DNA of 64,000 nucleotides, taken from NCBI GenBank assembly GCA_026391215.1, contig JAPLDX010000048.1, forward strand, positions 22,052 through 86,051, given 5' to 3'. Numbering within the stretch: position 1 is the stretch's first letter; every line of letters begins with the position of its first letter. Below, in pieces: positions 8,534 through 50,905 of the stretch. Source of the DNA: Bacteroidia bacterium. GTDB taxonomy: Bacteria > Bacteroidota > Bacteroidia > Bacteroidales > VadinHA17. The notes under the pieces were generated by a model. It was not told the origin of the DNA, did not search any database, and worked only from the letters and a program-made list of their open reading frames with translations. The translations under genes were made by a program, and so were the position numbers.

Positions 8534-11500
8534 ATGAATAAAAATTTCCTGATAAAGCCGGCATTAATACTCCTGTGCATTATCATTAACATTGATTTGT
8601 TCCCCCAGACTTTTGTTGATACCGGCATAACGCTAACAGGAGTTCAACGGAGCTCATCTTCATGGTGCGATTATGACAGGGACGGAGATATGGATATTCT
8701 GATCACCGGAGACAATATATCAAAAATATACCGGAACGATGGGAGCAATACATTTAATGAACAGACCGGAATAGTCCTTGAAGGGATCTGGCAAGGATCC
8801 GTATCATGGGGCGATTATGATAATAATGGATACCCGGATATCCTGATGACCGGATATAGCTCTTCCGGCACAATTTCAAAAGTATACCGCAACAATGGTG
8901 ACAATACATTCACCGAACAGACCACCATAGTTCTGAAAGGAGTTGGTGATAGTTCAACAGAATGGGGAGATTATGACAATGACGGAGATCAGGATATTCT
9001 ATTGACAGGTAATGGATATTCAAGAATATACAGCAACAATGGCGATAATACCTTTACCTGGCAAACGAGTATCAGCCTTCAGGGCATTTCTGAAAGTTCT
9101 GTAGCATGGGGAGATTATGACAGGGATGGTGATCTTGATATTTTATTGACCGGTGGGGATATTTCAAAAATATACCGGAACAATGGTAATAATACTTTTT
9201 CAGAACAAACCAGCATCAGCCTTATAGGAATTTCTTGTAGTTCAGTGGACTGGGGCGACTATGATAATGATGGCTATCTGGATATTTTATTAACAGGAAA
9301 CGACAATTCCGGGACTCCATTGTCCAAAATCTACCGCAATAATGGAGATAACAGCTTCTCAGAACAAACCGATATAGGATTAACGGGAGTAAACTATGGC
9401 TCTGCAGTCTGGGGTGATTATAACAATGATGGTTATACGGATATCTTATTAACTGGTTCTAATTACGGAGGACCAGTTTCCAAAGTATACAAGAACAATG
9501 GCAATAATACTTTTACTGAGCAGACAGACATTATACTTACTGCTGTCTATAACAGCCGTGTTGCCTGGGGTGATTACAATAATGACGGGAAACTTGATAT
9601 CCTGTTAACAGGCGATACCGGCAGCGTGACTGTATCTAAAATCTATCAAAATGCCATTGCGACAGCAAATACTGCACCGGCCGCACCGGCAGGATTATCT
9701 GCCACATCTGATGAAACATCAGTCACTCTTCAGTGGAGCAGTGTGACTGGTGACGCCACTCCTGCCGGAGGGATGAGCTACAATGTACGTGTGGGCACTT
9801 CTCCCGGGGGTAACGATGTGGTTTCACCAATGTCACTGACAGCGGGGTCACACCTGCTGCCAGTAAACGGTAATGACGGATCAAATACTTCTTATGTCCT
9901 GAAAAATCCTCCAAAAGCCACCTTATACTGGAGCGTTCAGGCAATCGATAACGGATTCCTGGGAGGTGCATTTGCTGATGAACAATCGCTCACGTATTCT
10001 GTATCATTGCAGGCTTCACATGTTTTTACAGATAGTATAAAGACATCATCAGTAATACTGAACTGGACCAGGGGAAATGGTTCTGCCTGTGTGGTATTTG
10101 GTAAGAAAGGCAACAGTGGATCAGCTGCACCGGAGGATGGGACTACATATACTCCTGATCCTGCGTTTGGCACTGGTTCGCAAATCGGATCAACCGGATG
10201 GTTTTGTGTGTACAGCGGAAATGGATCCAGTGTCAATGTTGTCGACCTGGAACCAGCAACATATTATGTTTTCCAGGTTATAGAGTTTCAGGCCGGACCG
10301 GCATATTATTTTACAACTGGGCAAGCCAATCCTATCACATTCCGCACAACTACTTTTGTTGAACTGACCGGTGTTACACTTGAATCAGTAACCAACTGTT
10401 CATCAGCCTGGTGTGATTATGACAGAGATGGAGACCTGGATATCCTTTTGACTGGGAATGGAATTTCAAAAATATACCGGAACGACGGAAGCAATACATT
10501 CAATGAACAAACCGGTATTGTCCTGGAAGGAGTATCAAACAGCTCTGTCGCCTGGGGAGATTTTAATAATGATGGCTATCCGGATATACTTCTGACAGGG
10601 GATGGACCCGGCTATCCGGTTTCCAAAGTATACCGCAATAATGGCAATAACACTTTTTCAGAGCAAACCAGCATAGTCCTCATAGGGGTAAGCAACAGTT
10701 CAGTAGCATGGTCAGATTATGACAACGATGGTGATCAGGATATTTTATTGACCGGGAATGGAAATTCAAGAATTTACAGCAACAATGGTGATAATACATT
10801 TACGTATCAGGCGGGAATCATTCTACGGAATGTAAACAGGGCAGCTGTCGACTGGGCTGATTATGACAGGGATGGCGATCTCGATATTTTATTAATCGGG
10901 TGGGGATGGACAAATATTTACCGGAATAATGGCAACAACACCTTTACTGATCAAACCAGTATAAGCATTCAGGGAGTTAATGATGCTACAGCAGCCTGGG
11001 GTGACTATGATAACGATGGCTATCCGGATATTGTACTGGCCGGATGGGATAATTCACAATGTATATCAAAAATCTATCACAACAATGGAGGCAATAGCTT
11101 TACAGAACTAACCGGTACAGCGCTGACTCCGGTATGCAACGGATCGGTTGACTGGGGCGACTTTGATAATGATGGCTACCTGGATATCCTATTGGCTGGC
11201 TGGGGTCCGGCAGGACCTGTTTCCATAATATACAGCAACAACGGCAATAGCACTTTTTCCGAGCAGACAGACATAAATCTTAAAGGTGTTGGCAGCAGCT
11301 CTGTATCCTGGGGTGACTATAATAATGACGGTAAGCTCGATATCCTGTTAACAGGCGATACCGGCAGCGGCTATGCATCCAAAATCTATCAGAATGCAAC
11401 AGGAACCGCTAACATTGCACCGGCGGCACCTCCAGGATTATCTGCCACAGGTGTCCCAACATCCGTTGCATTTCAGTGGAGTGGTGTAACAGAAGATGCG

Positions 11501-14500
11501 ACTCCTGCAGGGGGAATGAGTTATAATCTGCGCATCGGCACCTCTCCCGGGGGCAGCGACGTGATTTCTCCGATGTCACTTGTCGCCGGATCACATCTTT
11601 TACCGAATTACGGCAATGTGGGTTCAAGTGTATACTATACACTTAAAAATCCACCGAAAGCAACTTTATACTGGAGCGTCCAGGCAGTAGACAATGGATT
11701 GATGGCAGGCGCATTTGCGGCCGAACAATCAATAGCCTTTTCCATATCATTACAGGCCTCACGGGTTTTTGCCGACAGCATAATGCCATCTTCACTGAGA
11801 TTGAATTGGACCCGTGGTAATGGTTCCGGCCGTGTGGTTTTTGCAAAGAAGGGTAACAGCGGAACTGCAACCCCGGAAAATGGAATGACTTATACTGCAA
11901 ATACTTCCTTTGGCAGCGGTTCACAAATCGGGACAAGCGGGTGGTATTGTGTATATAATGGAACCGGATCAGGCGTTGAAATTACCGGATTGGAACCACT
12001 GACAAACTATATTTTCCAGGTAATTGAGTATGACGCAGGTAATATTTATTTTACTGAAACCGGTCAGTCCAATCCTGTAGTAATACAGACTAATGCATTT
12101 ATTGAACAGACAGATATACTCCTTCAGGGTATAAGTCACAGTTATTTAGCCTGGGGTGATTACGACAGGGACGGAGACCTCGATATCGTGCTGACGGGGG
12201 ACGGAATGTCAAAAATATATCGCAATGAAGGGAGCAATACATTTACTGAGCAGGCTGGTATAATCCCGGAAACCATTAGTAACAGCACAGTTGCCTGGGG
12301 AGATTATGATAATGATGGTTATCCGGATATCCTCTTAACAGGAGATGGTCCATCGGGACCGGTTTCAAAAGTGTACCACAACAATGAGAACAATACATTT
12401 ACTGTACAAACGAGCATAATCCTCCAGGGAATTAGCAATGGTGCAGCTGAATGGGGGGATTATGACAATGACGGGGACCAGGATATTTTACTCGTTGGCA
12501 ACGGACATACCAGAATATATAGTAACAACGGCGATAATACTTTTACGTGGCAGGCTGGGATAACTATTCAGGGTGCTTCTGAAAGCTCTGCAGCCTGGGG
12601 TGATTGTGATAACGACGGAGACCTTGATGTTTTACTTACAGGGTGGAACAGCGCGAGAATATTCCGCAACAACGGAGATAATACATTTATCGAAATTACC
12701 GGGCTCCCGCTGCATGGAGTATCCTGGGGTTCAGCCTCATGGGGCGATTATGACAATGATGGCTGGCTCGATATCCTGCTGGCAGGAAACGGAAGTTCAA
12801 AAGTCTATCGTAATAACCATAACAATACTTTTTCTGAACAGACAGGAATAACCATGGTGGGTACCTGGAACAGTTCAGCAGCATGGGGTGATTTTGATAA
12901 CGACGGATACGCTGATATTTTGTTGACAGGCTGGGGACCTGACAAACAGATATCCAAAGTTTACCGGAACAATGGCAATAACACCTTCTCTGAGCAGACT
13001 GGAATAACTCTTACCGGTATCAACAACGGCTCTGCAAGCTGGGGTGATTACAATAATGACGGGAAGCTCGATATACTATTGTCAGGTGATATCCAGAATG
13101 GAGGAGTAACCAAAATATATCAAAATAATTATATAACGTCAAATGCTGCACCTGCAGCACCAGCAGGATTATCAACCACCAGTAATGAAACATCCGTAAC
13201 TCTTCAGTGGAACAAGGTTATCGGTGATGCAACACCTGCCGATGGAATGAGTTACAATGTGCGCATTGGTACCACTCCCGGAGGAAGTGATGTGGTTTCT
13301 CCATTATCATTGACATCAGGATCAAGACTGCTGCCGAAGCAGGGTAATGCACAGTCGAACACTTTTTATATTCTTAAGAATCCCCCAAAAACAACATTTT
13401 ACTGGAGTATTCAGGCTATTGACAATGGATTAATGTCCGGGCCATTTGCTGCTGAACAATCGTTTACCTATTCTGTATCACTTCAGGCATCAAATGTCTT
13501 TGCAGACAGTATCAGGCTATCGTCAGTACAATTGAAATGGACCCGTGGCAATGGTTCTGCCTGTGCGGTTTTTGCAAAGAAAGCAAATACCGGAACTGCG
13601 GTACCCGTAAATAGCACCGTTTATACTGCAAATACTGTATTTGGAAGCGGCCAGCAAATTGCCACAAGCGGGTGGTATTGTGTCTACAACGGGACAGGAT
13701 CAGGTGTAAAGGTCACGGGACTTGAAATATTGACGGATTATATCTTCCTTGTTATTGAATATGATGCCGGACCGGTATATTATGCAGAAACAGGAAACTC
13801 CAATCCAGCTGTTGTACAGACCAATGCATTTGAAGAACAAACAGGTATTGTTCTTCAGAATATGGGCAATACGGCAGGAGCCTGGGCTGATTACGATAAG
13901 GACGGAGACCCGGATATCCTGCTTACAGGAGACGGAATGTCAAGATTGTACCTAAATAACGGAGACAATACATTCACCGAACAGGCTGGTATAATTCCGG
14001 ATAACTTCAGCAGCAGTACAGTTGCATGGGGTGATTTTAATAATGATGGTTATCCGGATATCCTTATAACAGGGGACTGCCAATCAGGTCAGGTTTCCAG
14101 AGTGTACCGCAACAACGGAGACAATACATTTACCTGGCAAACCAGCATTGTCCTGCCTGGGATAAACAACGGTTCGACAGAATGGGGAGATTACGACAGC
14201 GACGGGGACCAGGATATCCTGCTGGCAGGGAATGGTTTTTCAAGAATATACAGCAACAATGGCGACAACACCTTTACATGGCAGTCGGGAATAAGCTTAC
14301 CGGGGATTTCAAACGGCGCAGCAACCTGGGGCGATTATGACAACGACAGTGATCCCGATGTTTTATTAAGCGGGTGGGGATTTTCAAAAATATTCAGAAA
14401 TAACGGAGACAGGACTTTTACCGAACAAACCGGCATCAGCCTCCAGGCAACTAATGACGGAGCATCAGCAGCGTGGGGCGACTATGATAATGATGGTTAC

Positions 14501-17500
14501 CTGGATATTCTATTGACCGGATTAAACAATTCTTCAGGTCAGATATCCAAAGTCTACCATAATAACGGAGACAATACCTTCACCGAACAAACTGGTATAA
14601 TCCTGACAGGAATAAACAATGGCTCCTCAGCCTGGGGTGATTTTGACAATGATGGTTTTGCGGATATCCTTTTATCCGGTTATACTGCTACCCGTCAAAT
14701 TTCAAAAATATACCGGAACAATGGTGACGGTACTTTTTCGGAACAGACAGGAATAGTTCTTGCAGGTGCCGGGAACTGCATCGCAGCCTGGGGCGACTAT
14801 AACAATGACGGGAAACTCGATATCCTGTTGTCAGGCGATTCGGGCTACGGAGGGATATCCAAAATATATAAGAATTCATATATAACATCCAATACCGCAC
14901 CGGGGACACCATCGGGATTATCAGAAACAACCGGAGAAGCATCCATTACTCTGCAGTGGGGCGATGTAACAGGCGATGCCACTACTGCAGAAGGAATGAG
15001 TTATAATGTGCGCATTGGCAACACTCCGGGAGGGAGTGAAGTGGTTTCACCAATGTCGCTGGCATCTGGATCGCACCTGATACCGAGGCGTGGCAATGTC
15101 TGGTCAGGTACTTCATTTATACTGAAAAACCCTGCAAAAACCACTTTTTACTGGAGTGTCCAGGCAGTTGACAACGGATTATTGGCAGGTGCATTTGCTG
15201 GTGAACAATCATTCAACTATTCAGTTTCACTGCAGGCTTCAAATGTGTTTGCTGATAGCATCAAACCATACTCAGTAAGATTAAACTGGACCAGGGGCAA
15301 TGGTTCTGCCTGTGTTGTTCTTGCAAAGAAAGGCAACAGCGGAACAGCAACTCCTGAAAATGGTATAATCTATACAGCGAATCCTGTATTTGGGAATGGT
15401 TCCCAAATTGGAACAAGCGGTTGGTACTGCATTTATAATGGAACAGGATCAAGTGTAAAAGTCACTGGTCTCGAAGCATTGACTGATTATGTTTTTCAGG
15501 TTATTGAATATGATGCAGGACCATCATATTTCACTGAAACCGGGCAGGCCAATCCTGCTGTTGTTCAATCTAATGCATTTGAGGAGCAGACAGGTATAAC
15601 TCTTCAGGGTGTAAATAACTCTTCGTCTGCATGGGCTGATTATGACAGGGACGGAGACCTGGATATTCTGCTGACGGGAGACGATGTGTCAAAAATATAC
15701 AGGAATAATGGTAACAATACATTTACTGAACAGACCGGAATAATCCTGCAGGGAGTAAATAACAGTTCGGTGGCATGGGGCGATTATGATAATGATGGTT
15801 ACCCGGATATCCTCTTGTCAGGCTGCAGTCCTTCAGGAGTAATTTCCAGGGTATACCGCAACAACGGCAACAATACATTCACTGAGCAGACAAGCATTGC
15901 CCTGCAGGGTGTGTGCAACGGTTCAGTGTCATGGGCAGATTATGACAACGACGGAGATCCTGATATTTTATTGTCGGGAAGCGGTATTACAAGAATATAC
16001 AGCAACAACGGAGATAATACATTTACGTGGCAGACAGGCATAGTTTTGCAAAACACTGATGGGAGCTCGGCAGCGTGGAGTGATTATGACAGGGATGGAG
16101 ATCCTGATCTTTTACTGACCGGGTGGAATAATTCAAGAATATACCGTAACAATGGCAATAATTTTTTTACTGATCAAACCGGCATAAGTCTTGAAACAAT
16201 CAGTCAGGGTTCGGTAGCCTGGGGCGACTATGATAACGACGGTAATCCTGATATTTTATTGACAGGATATACCAATTCCTGGGTCCCTATATCCAAAATT
16301 TACCATAACAATGGCAATAACAGCTTCAGCGAACTTGCAGGTACATCATTAACAGGAGTTGGCAATGGTTCAGTAGCCTGGGGTGATTTTGACAACGATG
16401 GTTATCCTGACATACTGTTAACCGGCTATGATCCAGCAGGAAAACAGATTTCTAAAGTTTATCATAACAACGGTAACAGTACCTTTTCAGAACAGCCAGG
16501 CATTGTACTTAAAGGAGTGGGCCACGGCTCAGCAGCCTGGGGCGATTACACCAATGACGGGAAACTGGATTTTATGTTAACTGGCTATTCCGGTTACGGA
16601 GGCATATCCGGGATTTATCAGAACTTCATAACAACCTCCAATAGTGCACCGGCTGCACCAACAGGATTGTCGGCCACAGGCACTGAGGCAGCTGTCACTT
16701 TTCAGTGGAGCGGAGTTTCAGGTGATGCCACCCCAACGGCAGGCATGAGTTACAATGTACGCATTGGTACGACACCCGGGGGAAGCGAAATAGTTTCTCC
16801 AATGTCGCTGACTTCCGGATCGCGTTTGCTGCCTGATCAGGGCAACGCCTGGTACAATACTCAGTTTATCTTAAAGAAACCTGAAATGGCAACCCTGTAC
16901 TGGAGTGTACAGGCTATTGATAAAGGATTATTGTCCGGACCATTTTCTGCTGAGCAGACATTCACCTATTCCTTCCCTCTTCAGGCTTCAAATGTTTTTG
17001 CTGATAGCATTAATCCCTCATTCTTGAAGCTGAACTGGACAAGAGGCAATGGTTCAGGCTGTTTAGTATTTGTGAAGAAAGGCGACAGCGGGTCAGCCAT
17101 ACCTGTAAACAGTACGGTGTATTTAGCCAATACTGTATTTGGCAGTGGTACACAGATTGGCTCAACCGGGTGGTACTGTGTTTACAATGGAACAGGAGCC
17201 AGTGTCAGAATTATGGGGCTGGAACCTTTGACAAATTATGTTTATCATGTAATAGAGTTTGATACAGGGCCGTCATATTTTACTCAGACCGGACAAGCTA
17301 ATCCGGTTATTATCCAGTCGAATGCATTTGCCGAACAGACCGATATAATCCTCCAGGGAGTCAACAATAATTCAATAGCCTGGTGTGATTACGACAGGGA
17401 CGGTGATCTTGATATTATCCTGACCGGAGACGGAATGACCAAAATATACCGGAATGAGGGCGTCAATACATTTATTGAACAGACCACGATAGCATTACAG

Positions 17501-20500
17501 GGAGTAAGCAGCGGTTCTGTAGCCTGGGGCGACTATGATAATGATGGTTACCCGGATATCCTGTTAACCGGGGATAGCCCTTCAGGTCCGGTTTCCAGAG
17601 TGTACCGTAATAATGGCAACAATACTTTTACTGATCAGGCCAGTATAGTCCTTATAGGAGTAAGCAACAGTTCGGTAGCCTGGGGTGATTACAATAATGA
17701 CGGGAATCCTGATATCTTATTATCCGGGCATGACAAGGACAATAATGGAATTTCCAGGATATACCGAAATAACGGAGATAATACTTTTACCTGGCAGGAA
17801 GGGATCAGCCTGTATGGAGTTTCTGAAAGCTCCGTAGCCTGGGGGGATTATGATAACGACGGCGACCTGGATATTTTACTGACCGGTTGGAGCAGTTCAA
17901 GGATCTACTGCAATAACGGAGATAATACTTTTACTGAGCTCTCCGGGATAACCCTGTACGGAGTCTCCTGGGGTTCTACAGCCTGGGGGGATTACGATAA
18001 TGATGGTTACCTGGATATCCTTATGACGGGAAATGGAATTTCAAAAGTGTACAGGAATAGCCGGAACAATACTTTTTCTGAACAAACCGGCATAATCCTG
18101 CCTGCAATATGGCAGGGCAATGCAGTCTGGGGGGATTATGATAATGATGGTTATGCGGATATCCTGTTAACGGGTTATGCTTCAGCAGGGCATGTTTCCA
18201 AAGTTTACAGGAACAACGGTAACAACACTTTTACAGAGCAAACAGGAATAGTTCTTAAGAATATCGGCAACGGCAATGCAGTCTGGGGTGATTACAATAA
18301 TGACGGAAAGCTCGATATTCTTTTATCAGGTGATACAGGAAACGGAACAGTTACAAAAATATATCAGAACTCTCTTATTAGTTCCAATGCCGCCCCAGCA
18401 GCACCAGGAGGATTATCCGCAACAAGTAATGAAACATCAATAATTTTTAAGTGGAACCGTGTGACAGGAGATGCTACCCCTGCAAAAGGAATGAGTTACA
18501 ATGTGCGCATCGGTACAACACCAGGAGGAAGCGATATGGTTGCACCAATGTCACTGGCATCAGGTAAAAGACTGGTACCTGAGATGGGAAATGTCCAGTC
18601 AGATACTCTCTTTATACTTAAGAATCCTAAAAAAGGCACTTATTATGGGAGTGTCCAGGCTATCGATAACGGATTTTATCCAGGTGCATTTGCTGTGGAA
18701 CAATCGATTACCTATTCTTATTCGGTACAAGCTTCATATATTCATGCTGATAGCATAAAGGCTTTGGATATGATTATACGCTGGAACAGAGGTAACGGAT
18801 CCGGCTGTGTTGTCTTTGCAAAGAAAGGAGATAGCGGATCAGCGGTTCCGGCAAACGGCACTACATATACTGCTGATCCGGTTTTTGGTAATGGATCACA
18901 GATTGGCGCCACAGGATGGTATTGTATTTATAACGGAACCGGGATCAATGTTAAAGTGAGTGGGTTGGAACCGTTGGCCAGTTATATTTTCCATGTAATA
19001 GAGTTCGAAACAGGGCTATCATACTATACTCAAACAGGGCAGTTTAATCCTGCTGTTTTGAAAACGAACCTGTTTGCTGAACTTACCAGAACAATACTTC
19101 CTGGTATTGGAGGTCATTGTTCATCTGCCTGGGGCGATTATGACAGGGATGGAGATCTGGATATTTTGTTGACAGGATACGGGATATCAAAGATATACCG
19201 CAATGATGGCAGCAATACATTTAATGAACAGACCGGTATAATTCTTGAAGGAGTATCAGCTTCCTCTGCGTCCTGGGGGGATTATGACAATGACGGATAT
19301 CTTGATATTTTATTGACCGGGTGGTCAAATAATGGATATTCAATGTCCAAAATTTACCGCAATAATGGTGACAATACGTTTACCTGGCAAAGCAGTATTT
19401 CGCTTACCGGAGTAGTCAATGGTGCTGTAGCCTGGGGTGACTACGATAATGACGGGGATCTTGATGTTTTGCTGACAGGCAGCAGATATTCAAAAATATA
19501 CCGGAATAACGGTGATAATACTTTCACTGAACAGACAGCGATCTCATTAACAGGAGTAGATTCAGGCACTGCTTCCTGGGGAGATTATGATAACGATGGT
19601 GATCTGGATATTTTAATGACAGGTCAGGCGGTGGCCAGTCCGGTTGCTAAAATCTTCCGAAACAATGGTGATAATACCTTTTCTGAGCAGACAGGCATTA
19701 ACCTTGAGGGAATAAACGAAGGTTCAGCGAAATGGGGAGACTATGATAACGACAGTTACCTGGATTTCTTTGTGGCAGGACAGGGACGCGCCAAATTATT
19801 CCACAATAATGGCAATAATACTTTTACTGAACAAACTGGTATAAGTATTCCTGGTATCAATCAAAGTTCAGCAACCTGGGGAGATTATGATAATGATGGC
19901 TTTATTGATATTTTATTGTCAGGGAATGAAAATACGGGTCTTACAGTATCAAAAATATTCCGGAACAACGGCAATAAGACGTTTTCAGAACAAACAGACA
20001 TTATTTTGCCTGGTGTCTCCCGCGGCTCAGTAGACTGGGGCGATTATGATAATGACGGGAAACTGGATATCTTATTAACCGGTGATAGCAGAAATGGAAG
20101 TATATCCAAAATCTATAAGAATTATATTACAAAATCCAATGCCGCGCCGGCAGCGCCATCAGGATTGTCGGCCACCACTAACGAAACATCAGTAATTCTC
20201 AGGTGGAACAGGGTAACAGGTGATGAGACCCCCGCCAAAGGAATGAGTTACAATGTACGCATCGGGACTTCTCCCGGAGGGAGCGATGTTGTTTCAACAA
20301 TGTCACTGACCTCCGGATCACACTTGCTTTCAGGCATGGGTAATGCTCAGTGTGATACGATGTTTATCCTGAAATATCCTGATAAAGTCACTTATTACTG
20401 GAGCGTTCAGGCTATTGATAACGGACTAAAGCCAGGTCCTTTTGCTACTGAACAAACGATTATTTATTCAGTACGGTTGCAGGCTTCTCAGATCATTGCC

Positions 20501-26500: not shown

Positions 26501-29500
26501 ACAGGTAATATATCGAAAGTTTACCGCAATAATGGTGATAATACATTTACCGATCAGACAGGCATTGTTCTGCAGGGAGTTTCTGAAGGTTCCTCTGCAT
26601 GGGGCGATTATGATAATGACGGCGACCTGGATATTTTACTGACCGGAACAACTAACGGATCAGTTTCAGGAGCAGCTTCAGAAATCTACAGGAACAATGG
26701 TGATAACACATTTACTGAACAATCCGGCATAACCCTCCTGGGAGTTTATCAGAGTGCTGCAGAATGGAACGATTATGATAGTGACGGCGATCTTGATATA
26801 ATGATAACCGGGTCCTCTTCAATAGGATATATTTCCAGGATTTACCGCAATAATGGTGACTATACTTTTACCCTGCAGACGACTCTTTCCTTTCCCGGAA
26901 TAATATCCGGGACCATAACATGGGGAGATTTTACAAATGACGGAAATCCGGATATCATACTCACAGGGACAATCAATGGTTCTGCCTCCGGAGCTGTATC
27001 AAGGTTCTACAGGAATAACGGTGACAATACCTTCAATGAGATGCCCGGAATCGTCCTCTCTGGAGTTTATCTGAGCTCAGCTGAGGCAGGCGATTACGAT
27101 ATGGACGGGAATCCGGACCTCCTTCTTACAGGCTCCGGTATTGACGGTAATCCTATAGTAAAATTATATCGTAACCTTATTTCAATACCAAACAATGAAC
27201 CGGCTGCACCAACAGGTCTGACAACCACAAGCAGCGAAGCATCAATTTTATTCCGGTGGAAAAGGGTTTCCGGAGATGCAACACCTTCCATGGGTATTGG
27301 TTACAATATCAGGATCGGTACTTCTCCCGGCGGAAGTGATGTGGTATCCCCGATGTCTCTCTCATCAGGATCACGCCTTGTACCTGATTATGGCAATTCC
27401 CGTTCCGATTCTGTTTTTGTTCTGAAGTCACCAAAGAAGATAACCTATTACTGGAGTGTTCAGGCTGTTGATAACGGATTCAATCCCGGACCATTTTCTG
27501 CCGAACAATCTGTAACGTATACAATATCCGTACAGGCTTCCAGGGTAATTGCAGCTTCTGTTGAGGGAACAAACATTGATCTTGAGTGGACCAGGGGAAA
27601 CGGCTCTGCATGTGTAGTCTTTGCGAAGAAAACAAACAGTGGTTCAGCATTGCCTGTTGACGGAGATACGTATAGTGCTGATGCAAATTTCGGTGCAGGA
27701 ACCGAGATCGGTACTACCGGATGGTATTGTGTTTATTATGGAACTGATAATTTTGTCAATGTAAGAAACCTTGAATCACTTACATATTATACATTCCATG
27801 TAATAGAATTTGATCCGGGACCGGTATATGATACCAGGACAGGCCTGGAAAATCCATTAATAACTAAAACCGGATTATTCGATGAACAAACAGGAATAGC
27901 CATTCAGGGAATAACACAGGGATCAGTTTCCTGGGGTGATTATGACAGCGATGAAAACCCGGATATTCTTATTACAGGAAGCGGGTATTCAAGGATTTAT
28001 CACAACAACAGTGACAATACCTTCGCCCAGGCAGTAACAATGACAGGTGTCTTCTACAGCTCCGCTGCCTGGAGCGATTATGACAATGATGGTGATATTG
28101 ATATCCTGGTTACAGGAAGTGCATCCTCAAAAATTTACCGCAATGACGGTGGGAATACTCTTACCGAACAGACAGCAATAATTCTTGCCGGAGTTTCATA
28201 TGGTTCTTCAGCCTGGGGCGATTATGACAATGATGGCGATCCTGATATATTACTGACAGGCCGGCTGAGCTCAGGAGAAGGAGTCACGAAGATTTACCTT
28301 AATAATGGCAATGACACTTTCAGCGAACAAACACGAATCAGCCTGCCAAATGTATACTACAGTTCTGTTGCCTGGGGCGATTATGATAATGACGGGTTTT
28401 TAGACATTCTTCTTTCAGGTACTTCAAATGGACTGCCGTCGGGAGCATTATCAAAAGTTTACAGGAACAATGGCGATAACAGTTTTACCGTGCAATCAGA
28501 AATAATCCTCCAGGGAGTATATCAGGGCTCAGCAGCCTGGATCGATTATGATTCTGACGGCGATCTTGATATTTTACTCTCAGGAAGCACTGGCATCTCG
28601 GCCTCATCAGCTGTTTCGAAAATTTACCGAAATAATGGTGAGAACAGTTTCACAGAGCAAACCGCAATAAGCCTCCATGGAGTCTATCAAAGTTCTGCAG
28701 CATGGGGCGATCTTGATAACAATGGATATCCGGATATTCTGCTGACAGGCCGGTCAGCCAGCGGTGAATACAGGGCTGATGCATACCTTAATGATGGTGA
28801 AAATAACTTTACGGAACAGGAGAGTATTAGACTGACAGGAGTAATTTACAGTTCAGCAGAATTGTGTGATTATAACAAAGACGGTAAGCTCGATTTGTTA
28901 CTGTCCGGACAGTCAGGCAACGGTGCCATTTCAAAAATTTATCGAAACACTTCAACCGGTTCTAACAGCGCGCCTGCCACACCGATCGGCTTAACAGCCA
29001 CAGAAACAGAAACATCACTGATACTTAAATGGAACAGGGTTACGGGTGATGCTACACCGGCCGGCAGCATTATCTACAATGTACGTGTTGGTACTTCACC
29101 GGGAATCGGTGATATTGTATCTTCCATGTCAACGGCTTCAGGATCATCACTGATCCCTGATATAGGGAATGCCAGATCAGATACCCTTTATATCCTCAGA
29201 TATCCTCAGAAAACAACTTATTACTGGAGTGTTCAGTCTGTCGACAACGGATTTATGACCAGCCCGTTTGCAGCAGAACAAACTTTCGTCTTTACCAGTT
29301 CTGTTCAGGCATCTCTTGTTTATGCTGATAACATCCAGGGATCAAGCGTAAGCCTGACCTGGCGAAGAGGTAACGGAACAGCTTGTATGGTATTTGCAAA
29401 AGAGGGTGGAACAGGAATCGCTGAACCTGCAGACGGTACTGATTATACTGCCGGCCAGGTATACGGCTCCGGTACACAAATTGGCACAAGCGGATGGTAC

Positions 29501-31093: not shown

Positions 31094-34000
31094 GCTTCAG
31101 TACAGGCACAGATGATCTTTGCAGATAACATCCGGCCTTCAACCCTCGATTTGCATTGGCATCGCGGCAACGGATCAGCTTGTGCTGTATTTGCCCGTAA
31201 AGGAAACAACGGGACTGCATCACCAGTCAATGGAACTTCCTATACGGCTGACAGACAGTTCGGTGCAGGTACGCAGATAGGGACAACCGGATGGTACTGT
31301 GTTTATAACGGGACAGGTAATAATGTAAATATAACCGGACTGGAACCGCTGAAAACCTATATCTTCCATGTTATAGAGTATGAAAACGGGCCAGCTTACT
31401 ACACCAAAAAAGGACAGAGTAATCCATTTGTTACCCAAACCGACCTGTTTGTAGAGCAAACCTCTGTAACCCTGCAGGCAGTAAGCGGCGGATCAGTAGT
31501 ATGGGGAGATTATGACAGAGATGGCGACCTGGACATACTGCTGACCGGAGGAGGCGTTTCGAAAATATACCGGAATAATAATGACAATACTTTCTCGGAA
31601 CAAACAACCATTGTTCTGCCCGGCGTGACAAACAGTTCTTCATCATGGAGCGACTTTGATAACGACGGTGATCTCGACATTTTACTTACAGGCGGGAATA
31701 TTGCAAAAATCTTCCGTAATAATGGTGATAATATCTTTACCGAACAGTCTTCCATAACTCTGCCGGGAGTCACTTATGGTTCAGCAGCATGGGGCGATTA
31801 CGATAATGACGGCTATCAGGATATTCTTCTTACAGGCCGGCTCAGCAGTATGGAGTATACATCCAGAATCTTCAGGAACAATGGAAACGCTACATTTACA
31901 GAACAAACTGACATTGCCATAACAGGAGTCTATAACAGTTCTGTTTCATGGGGTGATTATAATAATGACAGTTATCCGGATATATTAGTGACAGGTAACA
32001 GCAGCTCTGGTCCGGTTTCGAAGATATACCGTAATAATAAAGACAACACTTTCATTGAGCAGACAGGTATCAAGCTGGAAGAAGTAGGATACAGTTCGGC
32101 AGTGTGGGGAGATTATGATAATGATGATGACCTGGATATTTTGCTGACGGGCAACAGTATCTCAAAAGTGTACAGGAATAACGGTAATAATACTTTCTCT
32201 GAACAGCCTGGTATAATACTTCAGGGAGTTGCTTACAGCTCGGCAGCCTGGGCTGATTTTGATAACGACAGTAATTCAGATATAGTTATTACCGGTACAA
32301 CAAACGGAACTGCATCAGGGGCAGTCACGAAATTCTACCGCAATAATGGCGATAATACTTTCGCGGAACAATCAGGTATAAGCCTTGCAGGAATTTTTAA
32401 CAGTTCAATAGCATGCGGTGATTACAACAATGATGGCAAGCTTGATATTCTTCTTACAGGAAGTAATGCGGATGGTTCTGCAGTATCTAAACTATATACA
32501 AATTACTGTGCAACAAGCAGGATAAAGCCGGGTATTCCGGTACTGGTTTCAAATGCAGTATCCGATTCATCAATAATGTTGAAATGGAACAGGGTGCTGC
32601 GGAATGGCAAGCCTGTCAGGGGAATGAGTTACAATGTAAGGATTGGATATTCACCGGAGGCCAATGATGTTATGTCATCAATGGCTTTAACGACTACAGG
32701 AACCAGGCTTATCCCAAAGATGGGTAATGTTCAATCCGATACCATTTTTGAACTTCGGAATCCCAGGCGAAACAATTTTTACTGGAGCGTCCAGGCAATT
32801 GACAATGGATTTAATGCGGGAGAATTTACCGAAGATATGGGCTTTAATTTCTCATCCTGGATCCAGGCTTCCGACCTTTTTGTAAATGATGTCCAGGGAG
32901 CAAGGTTGAATCTCTTCTGGAAAAGAGGTAACGGATCAGAATGCCTTGTATTTGTAAAAAAAGGGAACAGTGGAACTGCATCACCGGCTAACGGTACTCC
33001 TTATGAAGCCAGGGCAAAATTTGGTGCAGGAACCCAGATTGGCACAAGCGGATGGTTCTGTATTTACACAGGAACAGGCAACAACGTCACTGTGACAAAT
33101 TTAGAGGGATTAACCGACTATATCTTCGCTGTTGTGGAAACCGATGGAGGATTTAGTTATTATAATAATTTAAGAGGACATGGTAATCCGCTGGTTGTAA
33201 AAACGGGTGCATTTACAGAGGAGAGTTCAATAAGTCTGATTGGAGTAAAGAATGGTTCAGTCATCCCAGGTGATTATGATAATGACGGCGATCCTGACAT
33301 CCTGCTTACAGGAAACGGAAGCTCCAAAATATACAGGAACACCGGCAATAATAATTTTGCTGCGCAGAATGCGATCATTCTTACAGGTGTATCGGAAGGT
33401 TCTTCAGCATGGGGTGATTATGATAACGATAATTATCTTGATATCCTGATAACAGGACTTACCAGCGAAAATGCTCCTGTCACAAAGATCTATCATAATA
33501 ACGGGAACAACACGTTTACTGAACAAGCAGGTTTAACCATACCGGGAGTTTATAACAGCTCGGTAGCATGGGGGGATTATGATAACGATGGATTTCTGGA
33601 TATTCTTCTGACCGGCAGATCAGCTGCCAACGATATTATTTCTTCAATTTACCGCAATAACGGAGACTATACTTTTACAGGGCAAACAGGTATTATCCTT
33701 CAGGGAGTATATTCAGGCTCCTGCATATGGGGTGATTATAATAATGATGCTAATCTCGATATTCTCCTGACAGGATTTAACAGCAATAATATTCCTGTTA
33801 CAGGTCTCTACCGAAACAATGGAGATAACTCATTTACAGAACAGACAGCCGTTAATATCAGCGGTGTTGCCAGGAGCTCTGTTGACTGGGGCGATTATGA
33901 TAATGACGGAGATCTTGATATCCTGATAACCGGACAATCGGGCACAAGCTTTATTGAATATGTCTCAAAAGTATACCGCAACAACGGAGACAATACCTTT

Positions 34001-37000
34001 ACAGAGCAGACCGGCATTGAGCTTAAAGGAGTTCACAAGGGTTGCGCAGCATGGGGCGACTACGATAACGACGGCTTATCAGATATTCTTCTGACAGGAA
34101 ACTCAGGCACAATTGAGAGCGATTATGTTTCAAAGGTCTACCGGAACAATGGCAATAATACTTTTACTGCACAGACCAATATAAACCTCCTGAGTGTTTA
34201 TAACAGCTCAGCTGAATGGGGAGACTACGATAAGGACGGCAGGCTGGATATTTTCCTTGCAGGTTATAATCCTGATTACGGATCGGTAACCAGGGTTTAC
34301 AGGAACATGTCTTCGGCATCCAACAACGCACCATTAGCGCCGGCAGGTCTCATAACGACAAGCAATGAAACATCCCTGATCCTGAGATGGAACAGGGTGC
34401 CGGGCGATGCCACACCTGCAAAAGGAATGAGCTACAACGTGCGTATTGGTACCTCGCCGGGAATAAGCAATGTGGTTTCGACAATGGCATTGACCTCAGG
34501 GTCAAGGCTTATAACTGGTTTGGGCAATGCCCAGTCCGATACAATGTTTGTTCTGAAATATCCTCAGAGAGCAACTTATTACTGGAGCGTTCAGGCTATC
34601 GATAATGGCTTTGCTCCAGGTACCTTTGCTGCAGAACAGTCATATGTCTTCTCAACGCCGGTGCAGGCTTCCCGCCTTTTTGCCGACAGCATTCTTGTTT
34701 CAGGGATAACACTTCACTGGAACAGGGGAAATGGATCTGCCTGTGTTGTTTTTGCAAGAAAAGGTTCCACCGGTACAGCTGCTCCGGTTAATAATACAGA
34801 TTATACGGATGACAATAACTTCAGTGCCGGAACCGAGATTGACGCCTCAGGTTGGTACTGCATTTACAGCGGAACAGGAAATAAGGTTAAGGTAACCGGA
34901 CTGGAGCTTCTGACAGACTATACATTCCAGGTAATAGAATACGATCCGGGTCCGGTATACTTCACACAGACAGGACAGTCCAATCCTGTTATTGTGCAGA
35001 CAAGCATATTCTCAGAGCAGACAACTATAAGTCTTGCCGGAGTAACATATGGTTCGGTTGCCTGGGGAGATTACGACAACAGCGGTTATCAGGATATTCT
35101 GTTAACGGGTACGACAAATGGCAGTTATACGGGTGCTGTAACAAAAATATACCGGAACAATGGGAACAATACTTTCTCAGACCAGGTTGTCATAAGCCTT
35201 CCTGGTGTGATGAACAGTGCGGGAGCCTGGGGAGATTATAATAATGATGGTTATCTTGATATACTGCTGAGCGGTCTCGATATAAACAATGCACCTGTTT
35301 CAAAGATATTCAGGAACAATGGCAATAACAGCTTTTCAGAACAGACTGAGATTAGCATTACCGGCGTAAGGGAAAGCTCTGCAGACTGGGCAGACTTAAA
35401 TAACGACGGGAAGCTTGATATTGTAATTGCAGGAACTTCAGCATCAGGAGAAATTTCGAAGATCTACATTAACCTGGGCAATAATAAGTTCAGGGAGCAG
35501 CAGGGTATCAATCTTCCGGGAGTGACAAATGGTTCTGTTGTATGTGCTGATTACAATAATGACGGCTTTACGGATATTTTGATGACCGGATCGGGATTGT
35601 CCAGGATTTACCGAAACAGTGGTAACCCATTTTTAATGGAATTTATTGAACAGCAGGGCATTGATCTGACAGCTGTTTCAAAGAGCTCTGCAGCCTGGGG
35701 CGATTATGATGGCGACGGGGATCCCGATATCCTGCTTACAGGCTATGATATTACCGGTAATGTTCCGGTATCACGGGTTTACAATAATAACAACGACGCC
35801 TTCACCATCGCGGATATAAACCTGACAGGAATTGCCGGATCATCAGTCGCCGACAACTCAGTTATCGGGGCCAGTGAAACAATATGGGGCGATTACGACA
35901 ATGATGGCGATCCTGATATCCTTCTGACAGGAGAGACATCCTCCGGACGTATCTGCAGAATTTACACCAATAACGGTAACGGCACCTTCAAGGATCAATC
36001 AAATTTCAACCTGCCCGGAATAAGATACAGCTCAGCAGCATGGGGAGATTATGATAACGACGGGGACCTGGATATTATCCTTACAGGGGAACAGGGTGCT
36101 TCACGAATAACAAAGATTTTCAGGAACGAAATAGCGAAGTATAATGTCAGGCCCCAGGCACCTGAAAGATTAACCTCAGTGATTGGTGTACACAATACAA
36201 TACTCTCCTGGGATCCTGTGAAAAATGATGAAACGGCTCCGGAAGGACTGACATATAATATCAGGATAGGAACAACTTCTGCCGGCAGACAGGTAATGGC
36301 TCCGATGGCATCGACCGCAGGAATACGAAGAATAACTGCAATGGGGAATGCCCAGCTCGATACCTTTGGAATAATCCAGAACCTGCGGCCAGGAACCTAT
36401 TACTGGAGTGTTCAGGCGGTCGACAATGTATTTGCCGGAGGAACATTTGCAGCTGAGGCAAGCTTTACCATCGACAGCATTCAGGCGAGCAATCTGGAAG
36501 GCAAGCTGGTTGCAAACAGTAGCAACGCTCTTTCAATAAAATGGACAAACGGCAACGGGGAACGAAGAGTTATGTTTTGCAAACAGGGATCAACAGGGAC
36601 CGCAGTGCCTGCACATAATATAACCTATGGCGCAGATCCCGTATTCGGATATGGCGATCAGATAGACAATACCGGCTGGTATTGTATCTTTAATGGCAGA
36701 GGTGACAGTACGGTAGTAAGCGGTCTGTCACAGGGAGTGGCATATTCTTTCCAGGTCATAGAATATATTGGATCTACAGGAAGTGAATTATACTACAGGC
36801 TATCAGGCGAAAATAATCCAGGCATTTTCTCATCCGGATTATTCTCAGAACAATCAGATATCGCTCTAGATAAGGTATATAACAGCTCAGTTGTCTGGGG
36901 TGACTATGACAACGATGGCGACCTTGATATTTTGCTGACCGGTTATAATACACTTGAATCAGGATCAGCTGCTATTTCAAAGATCTACCGCAATAACGGC

Positions 37001-38330
37001 AACAATTCGTTTACAGAGCAGACAGGCATTAATCTCTTTGGCGTTCAGAATGGCTCAGTTGCGTTTGGCGATTATGATAATGACAATGACCTGGACATCC
37101 TGCTTACAGGTATGACCAGCGGCTCATTCCCTGTTTCAAAAATATACAGGAACAATGGCAACAATACCTTCACCGAGCAGGCAGGTATCAGCCTGATCGG
37201 AACAAGCTACTCTTCCGCCAGCTGGAGTGATTTCAACAAGGATGGCTATCTTGACATTCTCCTTACCGGTCAGGGCGCCGGATCAAACCTTATATCAAAG
37301 ATCTACAGGAACAATGGAAATAGTACTTTCACTGAACAGGTTGACATAAGCCTGGAACGCGTTTCAAAAGGTTCATCTGCCTGGGGAGATTATGATAATG
37401 ACGGTGATATAGATTTTCTGCTTACAGGCAATAACAGCTATGGAACACAGCAATCTGTTTCGGTTATCTATGCGAATAACGGCGACAGCACATTTACCGT
37501 GCAGTCAGGAATCAGCCTGCCGGGTGTAATGAACAGTTCTGTTGTATGGGGCGATTACGACAATGATGACGATCTTGATTTACTGCTAACAGGATATAAT
37601 AATGATGGCACAATGCTTTATATATCAAGAATATACAGGAACGATGGTAATAATGTATTTACTTATCAGTCAGGAATAAAGCTCGAGGGTGTGGCTAACA
37701 GTTCGACAGCATGGGGTGATTTCGACAATGACGGTGATCTGGATATTTTATTGTCCGGCCGTCTTGTATCAGGAGGATTCACCTCAAAGATATACAGAAA
37801 CAACAGCAATAACACATTTACGGAAGTGCCCGGCACTTCATTTACAGGTGTCGGCTACTGCTCTGTGGCATGGGGTGATTATGATAACGACGGGGACCTT
37901 GATATATTAATGACAGGACAGAGTACCGGTTCAACAGTAGTATCAAAGATCTACAGGAACAATGCAATAATGAAGGCAGGGGATTACGGAGCCAACAGAA
38001 AGCCAGCTCCACCGGCAAACCTTGCTTCTGTACGTCTGCCTGAGGGTATGAAGCTTTCATGGTCACCGGTAAAAACTGATGAAACACCTTATAAGTCATT
38101 AACCTATAATATATATGTCAAATCGCGTGAAGAAGGATATCTGACCTTCTCAGCGCAATCCGACAGTGTCACGGGATTCCGCCGGATAGTATCGATGGGG
38201 AATGCCCAGACAGACACGACTTATCTTATAAAGAATCTCACACCGGGGAAATATGACTGGAAGGTCCAGGCTGTTGACCAGGGTTACAGGGGAGGATACT
38301 GGGCTGACGGAGGGATGCTTAATGCAAAGA
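8600..38330 (+). repeat. 17 tandem coding repeats of about 1.75-1.85 kb (propeller + FN3-like-1 + FN3-like-2; unit 17 lacks the second FN3)
   Basis: The [ST]YN[VIL]R-type motif recurs near 9780, 11520, 13250, 15000, 16750, 18495, 20245, 21985, 23750, 25510, 27300, 29075, 30870, 32625, 34430, 36250 and 38100. Confidence 0.95.
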
Positions 38331-39325
38331 ATGTCCAGGCTTTCTTCAACGCAGGAACAGTATGCCAGGGATCTCCAACGAATTTCACTAACCAGTCGAC
38401 CGCCTATAAAGAAACAATTCAAAGTTATGCATGGGATTTTGGAGACGGTACAACTTCCGTTGAAAAAGAACCAAATCATACTTTCAGCACTTCAGGGATA
38501 CATAATGTAAAACTGATTGTAACTTCAGTGACTGATATTGATACCCTGATAAAGCCCGTTATGGTAAATCCGACTCCGGCACCTGATTTTTCAACGGAAG
38601 GTATATGTGAGGATGCTGAAATTACCATTGTAAACCTGACTGTTACACAAGGTATCAATATCACTGTTTGGGGATGGGAATTCGGAGACGGGCTTACTGA
38701 TACAGTAAGAAATCCGGGATCGCATGTTTATATAAATTCCGGTGAATACCCGGTATCTCTCACTTCCATTACTGATCACGGATGCAGCAGATCCACTGTT
38801 AAAGCGATTAACGTTGCTGATGCTCTTTCGAAACCGCAGATGTTTTCAAAGGGTCCGGTTGTATGGTACCTTGCCTGCAGCAACGACAGTGCAAACTATT
38901 ACCATTGGTATTGCAACAGGGAACTTATCCAGGGTGCAAGTAGTTTTCTTTACATCGCTAACCGGAAAGTCGGAAGATATTATGTAAGCATTTCTGATAA
39001 TGGTCAGTGCTTTACTGCAAGTGATACAGTGGGAATACCGACTGGTTATACCGGAATTGAGGAAATAGATCCGTTTGCCGGACTCACTCTTTACCCCAAT
39101 CCCACTTCAGGATTAGTTACGATTGATTTTGAGAACCAGTTGTTTGGAGACCTGAATATTAAAATACTGACAATTGGGGGTAAGGAGATATACAGCAGCA
39201 AGTTCGGGAAAGCGACAGAGCATTTCTCGGGCGAAATTGATCTCAGCGATAAGGCGGAAGGGATCTATTTTATTACATTCATCCTGGAGGATTATTCTGC
39301 GGTAAGGAAGATAGTCTTAGAATAA
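31112..39325 (+). CDS. Giant FG-GAP/FN3 repeat protein, C-terminal part (2737 aa from ATG 31112; 4 propeller units, 2 PKD, Ig-like domain, T9SS type-A CTD; no signal peptide)
   Basis: Same frame as 8534-31093. Begins mid FN3-like domain. Ends LYPNPTSG...RKIVLE. Confidence 0.85.
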   Translation: MIFADNIRPSTLDLHWHRGNGSACAVFARKGNNGTASPVNGTSYTADRQFGAGTQIGTTGWYCVYNGTGNNVNITGLEPLKTYIFHVIEYENGPAYYTKKGQSNPFVTQTDLFVEQTSVTLQAVSGGSVVWGDYDRDGDLDILLTGGGVSKIYRNNNDNTFSEQTTIVLPGVTNSSSSWSDFDNDGDLDILLTGGNIAKIFRNNGDNIFTEQSSITLPGVTYGSAAWGDYDNDGYQDILLTGRLSSMEYTSRIFRNNGNATFTEQTDIAITGVYNSSVSWGDYNNDSYPDILVTGNSSSGPVSKIYRNNKDNTFIEQTGIKLEEVGYSSAVWGDYDNDDDLDILLTGNSISKVYRNNGNNTFSEQPGIILQGVAYSSAAWADFDNDSNSDIVITGTTNGTASGAVTKFYRNNGDNTFAEQSGISLAGIFNSSIACGDYNNDGKLDILLTGSNADGSAVSKLYTNYCATSRIKPGIPVLVSNAVSDSSIMLKWNRVLRNGKPVRGMSYNVRIGYSPEANDVMSSMALTTTGTRLIPKMGNVQSDTIFELRNPRRNNFYWSVQAIDNGFNAGEFTEDMGFNFSSWIQASDLFVNDVQGARLNLFWKRGNGSECLVFVKKGNSGTASPANGTPYEARAKFGAGTQIGTSGWFCIYTGTGNNVTVTNLEGLTDYIFAVVETDGGFSYYNNLRGHGNPLVVKTGAFTEESSISLIGVKNGSVIPGDYDNDGDPDILLTGNGSSKIYRNTGNNNFAAQNAIILTGVSEGSSAWGDYDNDNYLDILITGLTSENAPVTKIYHNNGNNTFTEQAGLTIPGVYNSSVAWGDYDNDGFLDILLTGRSAANDIISSIYRNNGDYTFTGQTGIILQGVYSGSCIWGDYNNDANLDILLTGFNSNNIPVTGLYRNNGDNSFTEQTAVNISGVARSSVDWGDYDNDGDLDILITGQSGTSFIEYVSKVYRNNGDNTFTEQTGIELKGVHKGCAAWGDYDNDGLSDILLTGNSGTIESDYVSKVYRNNGNNTFTAQTNINLLSVYNSSAEWGDYDKDGRLDIFLAGYNPDYGSVTRVYRNMSSASNNAPLAPAGLITTSNETSLILRWNRVPGDATPAKGMSYNVRIGTSPGISNVVSTMALTSGSRLITGLGNAQSDTMFVLKYPQRATYYWSVQAIDNGFAPGTFAAEQSYVFSTPVQASRLFADSILVSGITLHWNRGNGSACVVFARKGSTGTAAPVNNTDYTDDNNFSAGTEIDASGWYCIYSGTGNKVKVTGLELLTDYTFQVIEYDPGPVYFTQTGQSNPVIVQTSIFSEQTTISLAGVTYGSVAWGDYDNSGYQDILLTGTTNGSYTGAVTKIYRNNGNNTFSDQVVISLPGVMNSAGAWGDYNNDGYLDILLSGLDINNAPVSKIFRNNGNNSFSEQTEISITGVRESSADWADLNNDGKLDIVIAGTSASGEISKIYINLGNNKFREQQGINLPGVTNGSVVCADYNNDGFTDILMTGSGLSRIYRNSGNPFLMEFIEQQGIDLTAVSKSSAAWGDYDGDGDPDILLTGYDITGNVPVSRVYNNNNDAFTIADINLTGIAGSSVADNSVIGASETIWGDYDNDGDPDILLTGETSSGRICRIYTNNGNGTFKDQSNFNLPGIRYSSAAWGDYDNDGDLDIILTGEQGASRITKIFRNEIAKYNVRPQAPERLTSVIGVHNTILSWDPVKNDETAPEGLTYNIRIGTTSAGRQVMAPMASTAGIRRITAMGNAQLDTFGIIQNLRPGTYYWSVQAVDNVFAGGTFAAEASFTIDSIQASNLEGKLVANSSNALSIKWTNGNGERRVMFCKQGSTGTAVPAHNITYGADPVFGYGDQIDNTGWYCIFNGRGDSTVVSGLSQGVAYSFQVIEYIGSTGSELYYRLSGENNPGIFSSGLFSEQSDIALDKVYNSSVVWGDYDNDGDLDILLTGYNTLESGSAAISKIYRNNGNNSFTEQTGINLFGVQNGSVAFGDYDNDNDLDILLTGMTSGSFPVSKIYRNNGNNTFTEQAGISLIGTSYSSASWSDFNKDGYLDILLTGQGAGSNLISKIYRNNGNSTFTEQVDISLERVSKGSSAWGDYDNDGDIDFLLTGNNSYGTQQSVSVIYANNGDSTFTVQSGISLPGVMNSSVVWGDYDNDDDLDLLLTGYNNDGTMLYISRIYRNDGNNVFTYQSGIKLEGVANSSTAWGDFDNDGDLDILLSGRLVSGGFTSKIYRNNSNNTFTEVPGTSFTGVGYCSVAWGDYDNDGDLDILMTGQSTGSTVVSKIYRNNAIMKAGDYGANRKPAPPANLASVRLPEGMKLSWSPVKTDETPYKSLTYNIYVKSREEGYLTFSAQSDSVTGFRRIVSMGNAQTDTTYLIKNLTPGKYDWKVQAVDQGYRGGYWADGGMLNAKNVQAFFNAGTVCQGSPTNFTNQSTAYKETIQSYAWDFGDGTTSVEKEPNHTFSTSGIHNVKLIVTSVTDIDTLIKPVMVNPTPAPDFSTEGICEDAEITIVNLTVTQGINITVWGWEFGDGLTDTVRNPGSHVYINSGEYPVSLTSITDHGCSRSTVKAINVADALSKPQMFSKGPVVWYLACSNDSANYYHWYCNRELIQGASSFLYIANRKVGRYYVSISDNGQCFTASDTVGIPTGYTGIEEIDPFAGLTLYPNPTSGLVTIDFENQLFGDLNIKILTIGGKEIYSSKFGKATEHFSGEIDLSDKAEGIYFITFILEDYSAVRKIVLE

Positions 39326-48507: not shown

Positions 48508-48523
48508 TGTAACAAAGAAAACA

Positions 48524-49162
48524 ATGGATTATATGCCTAAGAGAATCTTAATAACACTGGCGATATTGTTTGTAAGCCTCTGTGTCACAGCACAGGAGAC
48601 AAAAACTGCCATTACCAGCAAACAGGCAAAAATTACAGATGAAATTAACCTGAGCGCTGCCGATATTGAATTATTCAAGCAACAAACCAAGCAGAAAGTT
48701 GAAGAATTCCAGCAATATATTGTCACACTTGGAAGCAAGGATGAACCTGCCGAAAAGCGTAACATGGCCGAAAAAGAAGCATTAAAGCTCTTCTACAAAG
48801 GCGCCGAAATGGAAATAACGACAATTCTTCCGGATGGAACAGTACAGAAAGTAAACCGGCCGATGGAAAAATACCTGGCCCGACTGAAGTCCCTTCCTTT
48901 TACCAAGGTCATTATTAAATTCTACGATATTGCATATATAAGGGAATTTACAAAAGGTCCTGATGGCAAGTATTACTCAACAGCTACCATAATCCAGGAA
49001 TTCACAGGCTTCAGCAATGACGATATTATTTACACAGATGTCACTAAAAAGGAAGTGGAAATCATAATCGATATTGTTGAGGATACCTTTTTCCAGGAAA
49101 AAAGATGGAAGATATTCCTTGGCGATATCAAAGCTACAGAAACAAAAACAGCCGTTTCCTGA
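48524..49162 (+). CDS. Exported hypothetical protein; stand-alone homolog of the repeated domain of 46534-48507
   Basis: Signal peptide ending VTA-Q (start 48524 or 48533). LGSKDEPAEKR...ALKLF aligns with IGDPQEPAEDK...FLKLF; KGPDGKYY...EFTG aligns with KADDGSFF...FFSG. Confidence 0.75.
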   Translation: MDYMPKRILITLAILFVSLCVTAQETKTAITSKQAKITDEINLSAADIELFKQQTKQKVEEFQQYIVTLGSKDEPAEKRNMAEKEALKLFYKGAEMEITTILPDGTVQKVNRPMEKYLARLKSLPFTKVIIKFYDIAYIREFTKGPDGKYYSTATIIQEFTGFSNDDIIYTDVTKKEVEIIIDIVEDTFFQEKRWKIFLGDIKATETKTAVS

Positions 49163-50888: not shown

Positions 50889-50905
50889 CTCAGGTAGATT
50901 TTGTT

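Follow-up and report, generated by a model that had tools for sequence, protein, structure and literature searches.

A putative giant T9SS cargo gene of 17 predicted propeller units, broken by an in-frame stop codon in a Bacteroidia genome

We analyzed a 64,000-nucleotide stretch of DNA from a Bacteroidia bacterium (hereafter, the window), in which one reading frame spans positions 8534-39325 on the + strand. The best explanation is probably that this frame is a giant T9SS cargo gene encoding a putative multivalent, calcium-stabilised surface-binding fibre, and that it has been broken in the window by a change from TCA to TAA at position 31092. The frame runs from an ATG to a TAA over 10,263 codons plus the stop, with the in-frame TAA codon counted as a residue. 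The intact product computed from this 30.8-kb gene comprises 10,263 residues, with a mass of 1,098 kDa and an acidic pI of 4.25. The original prediction, made from the sequence of the window, had described a single protein of about 10,263 residues; the frame length, the ATG start and the terminal TAA agree with that description, but the TAA at 31091-31093 splits the frame in the window.

The translation opens with the start codon and a Sec-type signal peptide, MNKNFLIKPALILLCIIINIDLFPQ (8534-8608, +), recognized from its sequence and placing a Gln at the probable mature N-terminus. This N-terminal start (...SQ/TF.EQT) is common to orthologs and paralogs. The remainder splits into 17 units, 16 of them 577-611 aa long and the last 512 aa. 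This number, already given in the original prediction, was recovered in the translation and the unit alignment, and it agrees with an ortholog that matches unit for unit and with metagenome contigs that tile the gene. Unit 1 (8609-10354, +) consists of a seven-bladed FG-GAP/VCBS propeller followed by two FN3-like domains, and in unit 2 (10355-12097, +), the unit that was modelled, the propeller occupies residues ~1-350 and the two FN3-like domains residues ~355-465 and ~468-581. Units 3-12, ten units of 577-596 aa, cover 12098-29650 (+), with starts at 12098, 13829, 15578, 17327, 19073, 20825, 22565, 24329, 26090 and 27878. Unit 13 (29651-31447, +) holds the in-frame stop, units 14-16 (31448-36841, +) start at 31448, 33212 and 35009, and unit 17 (36842-38329, +) ends the array with a propeller and one FN3-like domain that begins at ~38000.

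An alignment of 16 units, together with inspection, gave seven blades per unit and 119 blades in total, with the blade consensus ...AWGDYDNDGxLDILLTG...SKIYRNNGNNTFTEQT... occurring in seven copies per unit. The predicted count of seven loop-bearing blades per unit was thus correct as a count, but the strict DxD/NxDG loop is present in 101 of the 119 blades and is slightly degenerate in the rest. Surplus or absent matches to the motif pattern in units 2, 7, 9 and 15 were accounted for by eye. In Pfam, FG-GAP_3 (PF13517) scored 585 bits in the portion of the frame downstream of the stop alone, and FG-GAP was also matched. The FN3-like assignment is based on Pfam matches to fn3 and Pur_ac_phosph_N (an FN3-like fold), on the AlphaFold2 model and on Foldseek matches to FN3; the proposed pair of such domains as a linker applies to units 1-16 but not to unit 17, with its single domain. 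Between units, identity ranges from 47 to 67% at the protein level and from 65 to 77% at the DNA level. Units 1-6 (8609-17326) are mutually 62-67% identical and were not separated in the unit tree, while units 10-17 (24329-38329) are more diverged, with 47-57% identity to unit 2; the N-terminal units may represent younger duplications or partial homogenisation.

Downstream of the array lie two PKD domains (38330-38818, +; Pfam PKD_4, 82.5 bits in two stretches), which also gave PDB sequence matches to the PKD domains of ColH. They are followed by a conserved module of ~78 aa (38819-39052, +), delimited by alignment and strongly conserved in both flanking paralogs, and by a T9SS type-A C-terminal sorting domain (CTD) with the stop codon (39053-39325, +). 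The CTD, matched over the last 78 residues, exceeded the cut-offs of both PF18962 (Por_Secre_tail; 46.4 bits, cut-off 27) and the NCBIfam model TIGR04183 (26.9 bits, cut-off 23), and the NCBIfam scan found only the type-A model, with no match to the type-B model TIGR04131. Of the predicted order PKD-PKD-Ig-CTD, the two PKD domains and the type-A CTD were therefore upheld, but the supposed Ig domain, which corresponds to the ~78-aa module, had no match to a Pfam family. With FG-GAP_3 and TIGR04183 both matched, the profile scan proposed alongside the prediction came out in its favour. A model of the C-terminal 300 residues, built from three sequences, was of low confidence (pLDDT 47.8), including in the 'Ig' module, and the CTD within it showed seven predicted strands at pLDDT 60-81.

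The in-frame TAA is codon 7520 (31091-31093, +) and falls in the linker between the two FN3-like domains of unit 13. It leaves two listed ORFs in one frame, ORF A at 8477/8534-31093 (7,519 aa when started at its ATG, position 8534) and ORF B at 31112-39325 (2,737 aa). The signal peptide lies in ORF A and the type-A CTD in ORF B, so that the two are joined on one polypeptide not in the window but only in the TCA allele of three metagenome runs (X1-X3). Because the TAA separates the signal peptide from the CTD, neither ORF would be exportable by the T9SS route, and the idea that the window allele itself yields the giant protein did not survive. Recoding of TAA was considered and rejected, since TAA terminates other long ORFs within the window.

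The gene was found in three freshwater-sediment metagenome runs from one study, in which position 31092 is C (TCA, Ser) in every contig. The depths for C relative to the total were 26.6/26.6 in X1, 11.3/11.3 in X2 and 6.1/6.1 in X3, in assembled contigs, which lose rare variants. An ortholog, the metagenome protein P0003, also has Ser at the site (SFVYSASVQAR, compared with TFVF-stop-ASVQAQ in the window), and the equivalent position in the other aligned linkers is Ser, or Thr in units 10-12. Comparison of the window with the three runs listed 57 SNPs, located to either side of the stop. Synonymous changes make up 37 of them and nonsynonymous changes 20, and the one at 31092 is the only SNP that touches a stop. 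We conclude that the whole length of the gene is under purifying selection. Because the three runs read TCA and the 66%-identical ortholog crosses the site with Ser, the sequences indicate that an intact 10,263-residue allele exists; the window allele would be either a consensus or assembly error or a recent knockout.

The second of these options amounts to a competing explanation for the state of this allele, though not for the nature of the gene. In it, the source strain truly carries the TAA and its copy has recently become a pseudogene, and we give this slightly less than an even chance. The 7,519-aa product, having a signal peptide and no CTD, would then be stranded in the periplasm or degraded, and the remaining 2,737 aa would lack a signal peptide. 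Consistent with this, the window does read TAA, both halves exist as separate proteins in the public record, and a strain SNP is a priori commoner than a consensus error. In addition, about a dozen further fixed differences, mostly synonymous, set the gene in the metagenome-assembled genome (MAG) apart from that in X1-X3. This indicates that the MAG represents a distinct strain or sample. However, the 2,737 codons downstream of the stop are fully open and show purifying selection in the population, and Ser is found in all three runs and in the ortholog.

Returning to the giant cargo that the intact allele would encode, we ran AlphaFold2 on unit 2, with the other units supplied as an alignment. 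The resulting model had a mean pLDDT of 86.7 and a pTM of 0.80. Its residues 1-350 contain 28 strands, and two beta-sandwich domains come after them. A Foldseek search against the PDB gave the fungal lectins PVL (2bwr, 4up4) and AAL-2 (4tqj) as the best matches to the propeller, with target-normalised TM-scores of 0.52-0.54 and 20-22% identity, and the remainder of the model matched FN3 tandems. On the basis of this model, the units are predicted to adopt a closed seven-bladed propeller fold. The structure prediction proposed for single units was thus obtained for one of them, and the architecture and the unit model together favour the suggested beads-on-a-string, calcium-loop design. VCBS propellers have a DxDxDG loop that binds Ca, and their usual ligands are carbohydrates or proteins; the core VCBS proteins are secreted, and a single one can contain several propellers (PMC8023676, PMC9218822). 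In the literature, the prokaryotic VCBS core is grouped with PVL and the integrin alpha propellers in one supercluster, of which the DxDxDG cation loop is the hallmark.

We also examined the genome for the corresponding secretion machinery. The genome (3.39 Mb, 135 contigs, 98.9% complete) encodes SprA (1,900 bits), the PorU sortase (1,210 bits) and PorV (487 bits), all above curated cut-offs. The giant gene is the middle member of a tandem cluster of three paralogous cargo genes. The upstream paralog (2463-8354, +; 1,963 aa) has FG-GAP_3, PKD and Ig_7 domains and a type-A CTD, and the downstream paralog (39498-46523, +; 2,341 aa) has 17 stretches of FG-GAP_3, fn3, two PKD domains, Ig_7 and a type-A CTD. 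Elsewhere in the genome, on contigs C38, C113 and C133, there are at least three other multi-propeller paralogs sharing the same tail, with open frames of ~4,195, 2,265 and 2,247 aa. The ~4,195-aa paralog lies on the minus strand at ~64.5-74.8 kb of C38, ~47 kb from porU-porV (C38:13418-17979).

Several further features were observed around the cluster. The region 46534-50019, which begins 10 nt past the third cargo gene, encodes a 657-aa protein whose C-terminal half contains an OMP_b-brl_2 outer-membrane barrel, and after it comes a 304-aa ORF without a family match; the barrel gene or this ORF could be a dedicated anchor or partner of the cargo cluster. No match to PorP/SprF was found among the neighbouring genes. 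On the other side, and likewise on the strand of the cargo genes, a protein of more than 806 aa with VWA and 'choice-of-anchor X' domains (2-2422) ends 40 nt before the first FG-GAP cargo gene, and this VWA gene beside an FG-GAP cargo recalls the pairing of VWA and FG-GAP propeller in integrins. Two genes of the endonuclease/exonuclease/phosphatase family, at 50022-50975 (-) and 54542-55621 (+), stand on either side of mutL (50951-52825), the first of them overlapping the start of mutL by ~25 nt on the opposite strand. On the + strand, scans of both intergenic regions flanking the giant gene for sigma-70 promoters and terminators were negative, and neither region contains a match to the Bacteroidota -7 motif (TAnnTTTG). 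A search for RNA runs holding the gene found none.

Following the established type-A pathway, Sec would export the intact chain to the periplasm, where its CTD would be recognized at the SprA translocon with PorV. The folded domains would then pass outward one after another, and PorU would cut off the CTD, leaving the protein attached to the surface or released. Judging from fold and composition, the product outside the cell would be a calcium-stabilised, acidic beads-on-a-string fibre, whose 17 propellers, diverged from one another but each conserved in an ortholog, may act as multivalent modules that most likely bind glycans or particle surfaces. Each unit would contribute roughly 10-12 nm and the fully extended fibre would measure roughly 200 nm, as estimated from typical domain dimensions rather than from coordinates. 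A role as a lectin or adhesin is our best guess from the same features, at about an even chance.

The same molecule might have a different role, such as a coat or sheath, kin or self-recognition, a decoy or shield against phages or grazers, or a scaffold for calcium or minerals, and taken together we consider these roles unlikely, though not negligible. They are in keeping with the proposal that VCBS proteins serve in bacterial self-recognition (PMC9218822), with the very acidic composition (pI 4.25) and about a hundred cation loops, and with the arrangement of three paralogous cargo genes in tandem followed by an outer-membrane barrel gene. Against them, Pfam and NCBIfam scans of the giant protein found no enzyme domain, toxin domain or polymorphic tip.

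We also examined the number and order of the repeats. Contigs assembled from each run tile 8300-39600 colinearly with more than 99.8% identity to the window, at an even, single-copy depth of ~13x, 10x and 7.5x, and contain no majority frame-breaking indels across the gene. These contigs are short (1-9 kb), with the longest, up to 8.7 kb, spanning unit borders, so that the order of the units rests on the assembly and on colinearity with the ortholog rather than on long reads. In run X1, one variant contig at about half depth differs at 24506-24523 by two indels, a +1 insertion and a -1 deletion, separated by 17 nt; it is either a haplotype with a compensated frameshift or a paralog that was cross-mapped.

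The nearest relatives in the databases are P0003 and P0004, both of them truncated metagenome proteins and each 66.5% identical to the giant. P0004 (5,163 aa, with a signal peptide) aligns to residues 1-5161, and P0003 (7,641 aa, both ends missing) forms a single HSP with residues 1790-9446; compared with the window unit for unit, it shows 0-8 gap columns in each unit. In the unit tree, cleanly cut units paired with their own orthologs at 100% support rather than with neighbouring units; the cutting of the orthologs was automated and imperfect, and five pairings were informative. We conclude that the 17-unit array is real and predates the split from the ortholog, and that collapse or chimerism is unlikely. 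It is highly improbable that the unit count is an assembly artefact, produced by a chimeric join of shorter paralogs or by misordered repeats. Such an artefact could arise in a short-read MAG of 135 contigs that contains five further paralogs of 1,963-4,195 aa, and the per-run contigs do end within conserved stretches. However, all 17 units are unique in sequence (65-77% DNA identity) and evenly covered at single-copy depth, contigs cross unit borders, and P0003 and P0004 reproduce the order and lengths of the repeats over residues 1-9446 almost without gaps, in addition to the fully supported ortholog pairing. The remaining alternative, that the stop is functional and the halves are two separate proteins by design, has the two called ORFs as the sole point in its favour and is close to refuted, because the stop lies inside a domain linker where other linkers have Ser or Thr, ORF B begins in the middle of that linker without a signal peptide, ORF A has no sorting domain, and the gene is continuous in the ortholog and in three samples.

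We next consider how widely the giant cargo gene and its family are distributed. The ortholog is absent from 24 other species representatives of the genus, so the gene is not a core function. The best tail match in those representatives was 43%, in an open frame of 2,364 aa that by its size seems to fit the 2,341-aa downstream paralog rather than the giant. A tail search of genome contigs matched only PKD-level relatives, mostly in Bacteroidota MAGs. In a word-based protein search that admitted candidates of 4,135-13,158 aa, 147 hits were obtained, many of them 4,000-8,000 aa long with a type-A CTD, and the longest match was 7,967 aa. A profile built from the units matched 135,415 cluster representatives at E <= 0.001; among the matches listed from this search of 1.84 billion representatives, the longest was 7,066 aa, and because the window's own 7,519-aa ORF was missing from the list, the search does not amount to a census. 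Proteins of more than 10,000 aa, including multi-propeller ones, are known from other phyla (bioRxiv 10.1101/2023.11.21.568195). From these searches, the giant is an extreme member of a common, uncharacterised family of FG-GAP_3 + fn3 + Por_Secre_tail proteins, not new in principle. It is also the largest T9SS cargo found in this analysis, by a margin that is not wide. The novelty implied by the original prediction is accordingly smaller than it seemed, as proteins of this family of 4,000-7,967 aa are numerous in MAG sets.

If the protein is expressed intact, the size range of T9SS substrates would extend to ~1.1 MDa. The giant chain would then offer a natural test case for feeding a folded multi-domain chain, far longer than the width of the periplasm, through SprA. 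Because the array is conserved unit for unit with the ortholog, its length and unit order were probably selected rather than being repeat noise. We regard as doubtful the stronger proposal that the intact allele is the largest T9SS substrate described, ~1.6 times the length of SprB, that the type-A route thus has no practical size ceiling up to this length, and that the 17 propellers of the fibre differ in binding specificity and form an ordered array instead of a simple spacer; the ordered array, if that reading is true, would follow from the sequence of each propeller having been maintained since a time before the 66%-identical ortholog split off. Otherwise, the giant stands out by its size within a protein family that is abundant and unstudied, and it represents no new mechanism. 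For annotation, it illustrates how a single-base stop in a MAG conceals a giant gene as two 'hypothetical' proteins.

Among known systems, the nearest to the giant are the FG-GAP-like repeat T9SS cargo proteins of Bacteroidota, Ignavibacteria and Elusimicrobiota MAGs, which have the same signal peptide, propeller + FN3 units and type-A CTD. Examples are P0006 (7,525 aa), P0007 (5,888 aa) and P0008 (7,967 aa), all with PF13517, PF00041 and PF18962. The giant is 30-45% identical to complete members of this group and 54-66% identical to the truncated ortholog fragments P0003-P0005. It differs from these relatives in having 17 units, compared with ~7-13, in its longer chain, and in the stop carried by the window copy. 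At the level of the single domain, PVL, AAL-2 and the integrin alpha propeller are predicted to share the same seven-bladed FG-GAP/VCBS fold with DxDxDG calcium loops. PVL and AAL-2 are single-domain, calcium- and GlcNAc-binding proteins, and with an identity of only 20-22% to the giant's propeller their likeness lies in the fold alone.

At the level of the whole molecule, the giant can be compared with SprB of Flavobacterium johnsoniae, a gliding adhesin of 6,497 aa and 669 kDa that is a very large folded T9SS substrate (PMC9251779, PMC9127263). SprB has a type-B CTD and requires a PorP/SprF-type partner (PMC9143113), and the literature on both its length and its CTD bears out the contrast drawn in the original prediction. 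As a T9SS-exported surface protein, SprB is very large, repetitive and filamentous (PMC9127263, PMC9251779), and the giant is predicted to resemble it in these respects. In contrast to SprB, the giant has a type-A CTD and propeller repeats unlike the SprB type; it has neither a TIGR04131 CTD nor an adjacent PorP/SprF-like partner, gives no sign of acting in motility, and is unrelated to SprB. Giant RTX adhesins such as LapA, SiiE and the 1.5-MDa Marinomonas ice-binding adhesin are likewise megadalton beads-on-a-string fibres with calcium-binding repeats. Their repeats are BIg or Ig-like, and an RTX signal at the C-terminus serves for their export by type I secretion. The giant has no homology to them, and what they have in common with it is a design principle.
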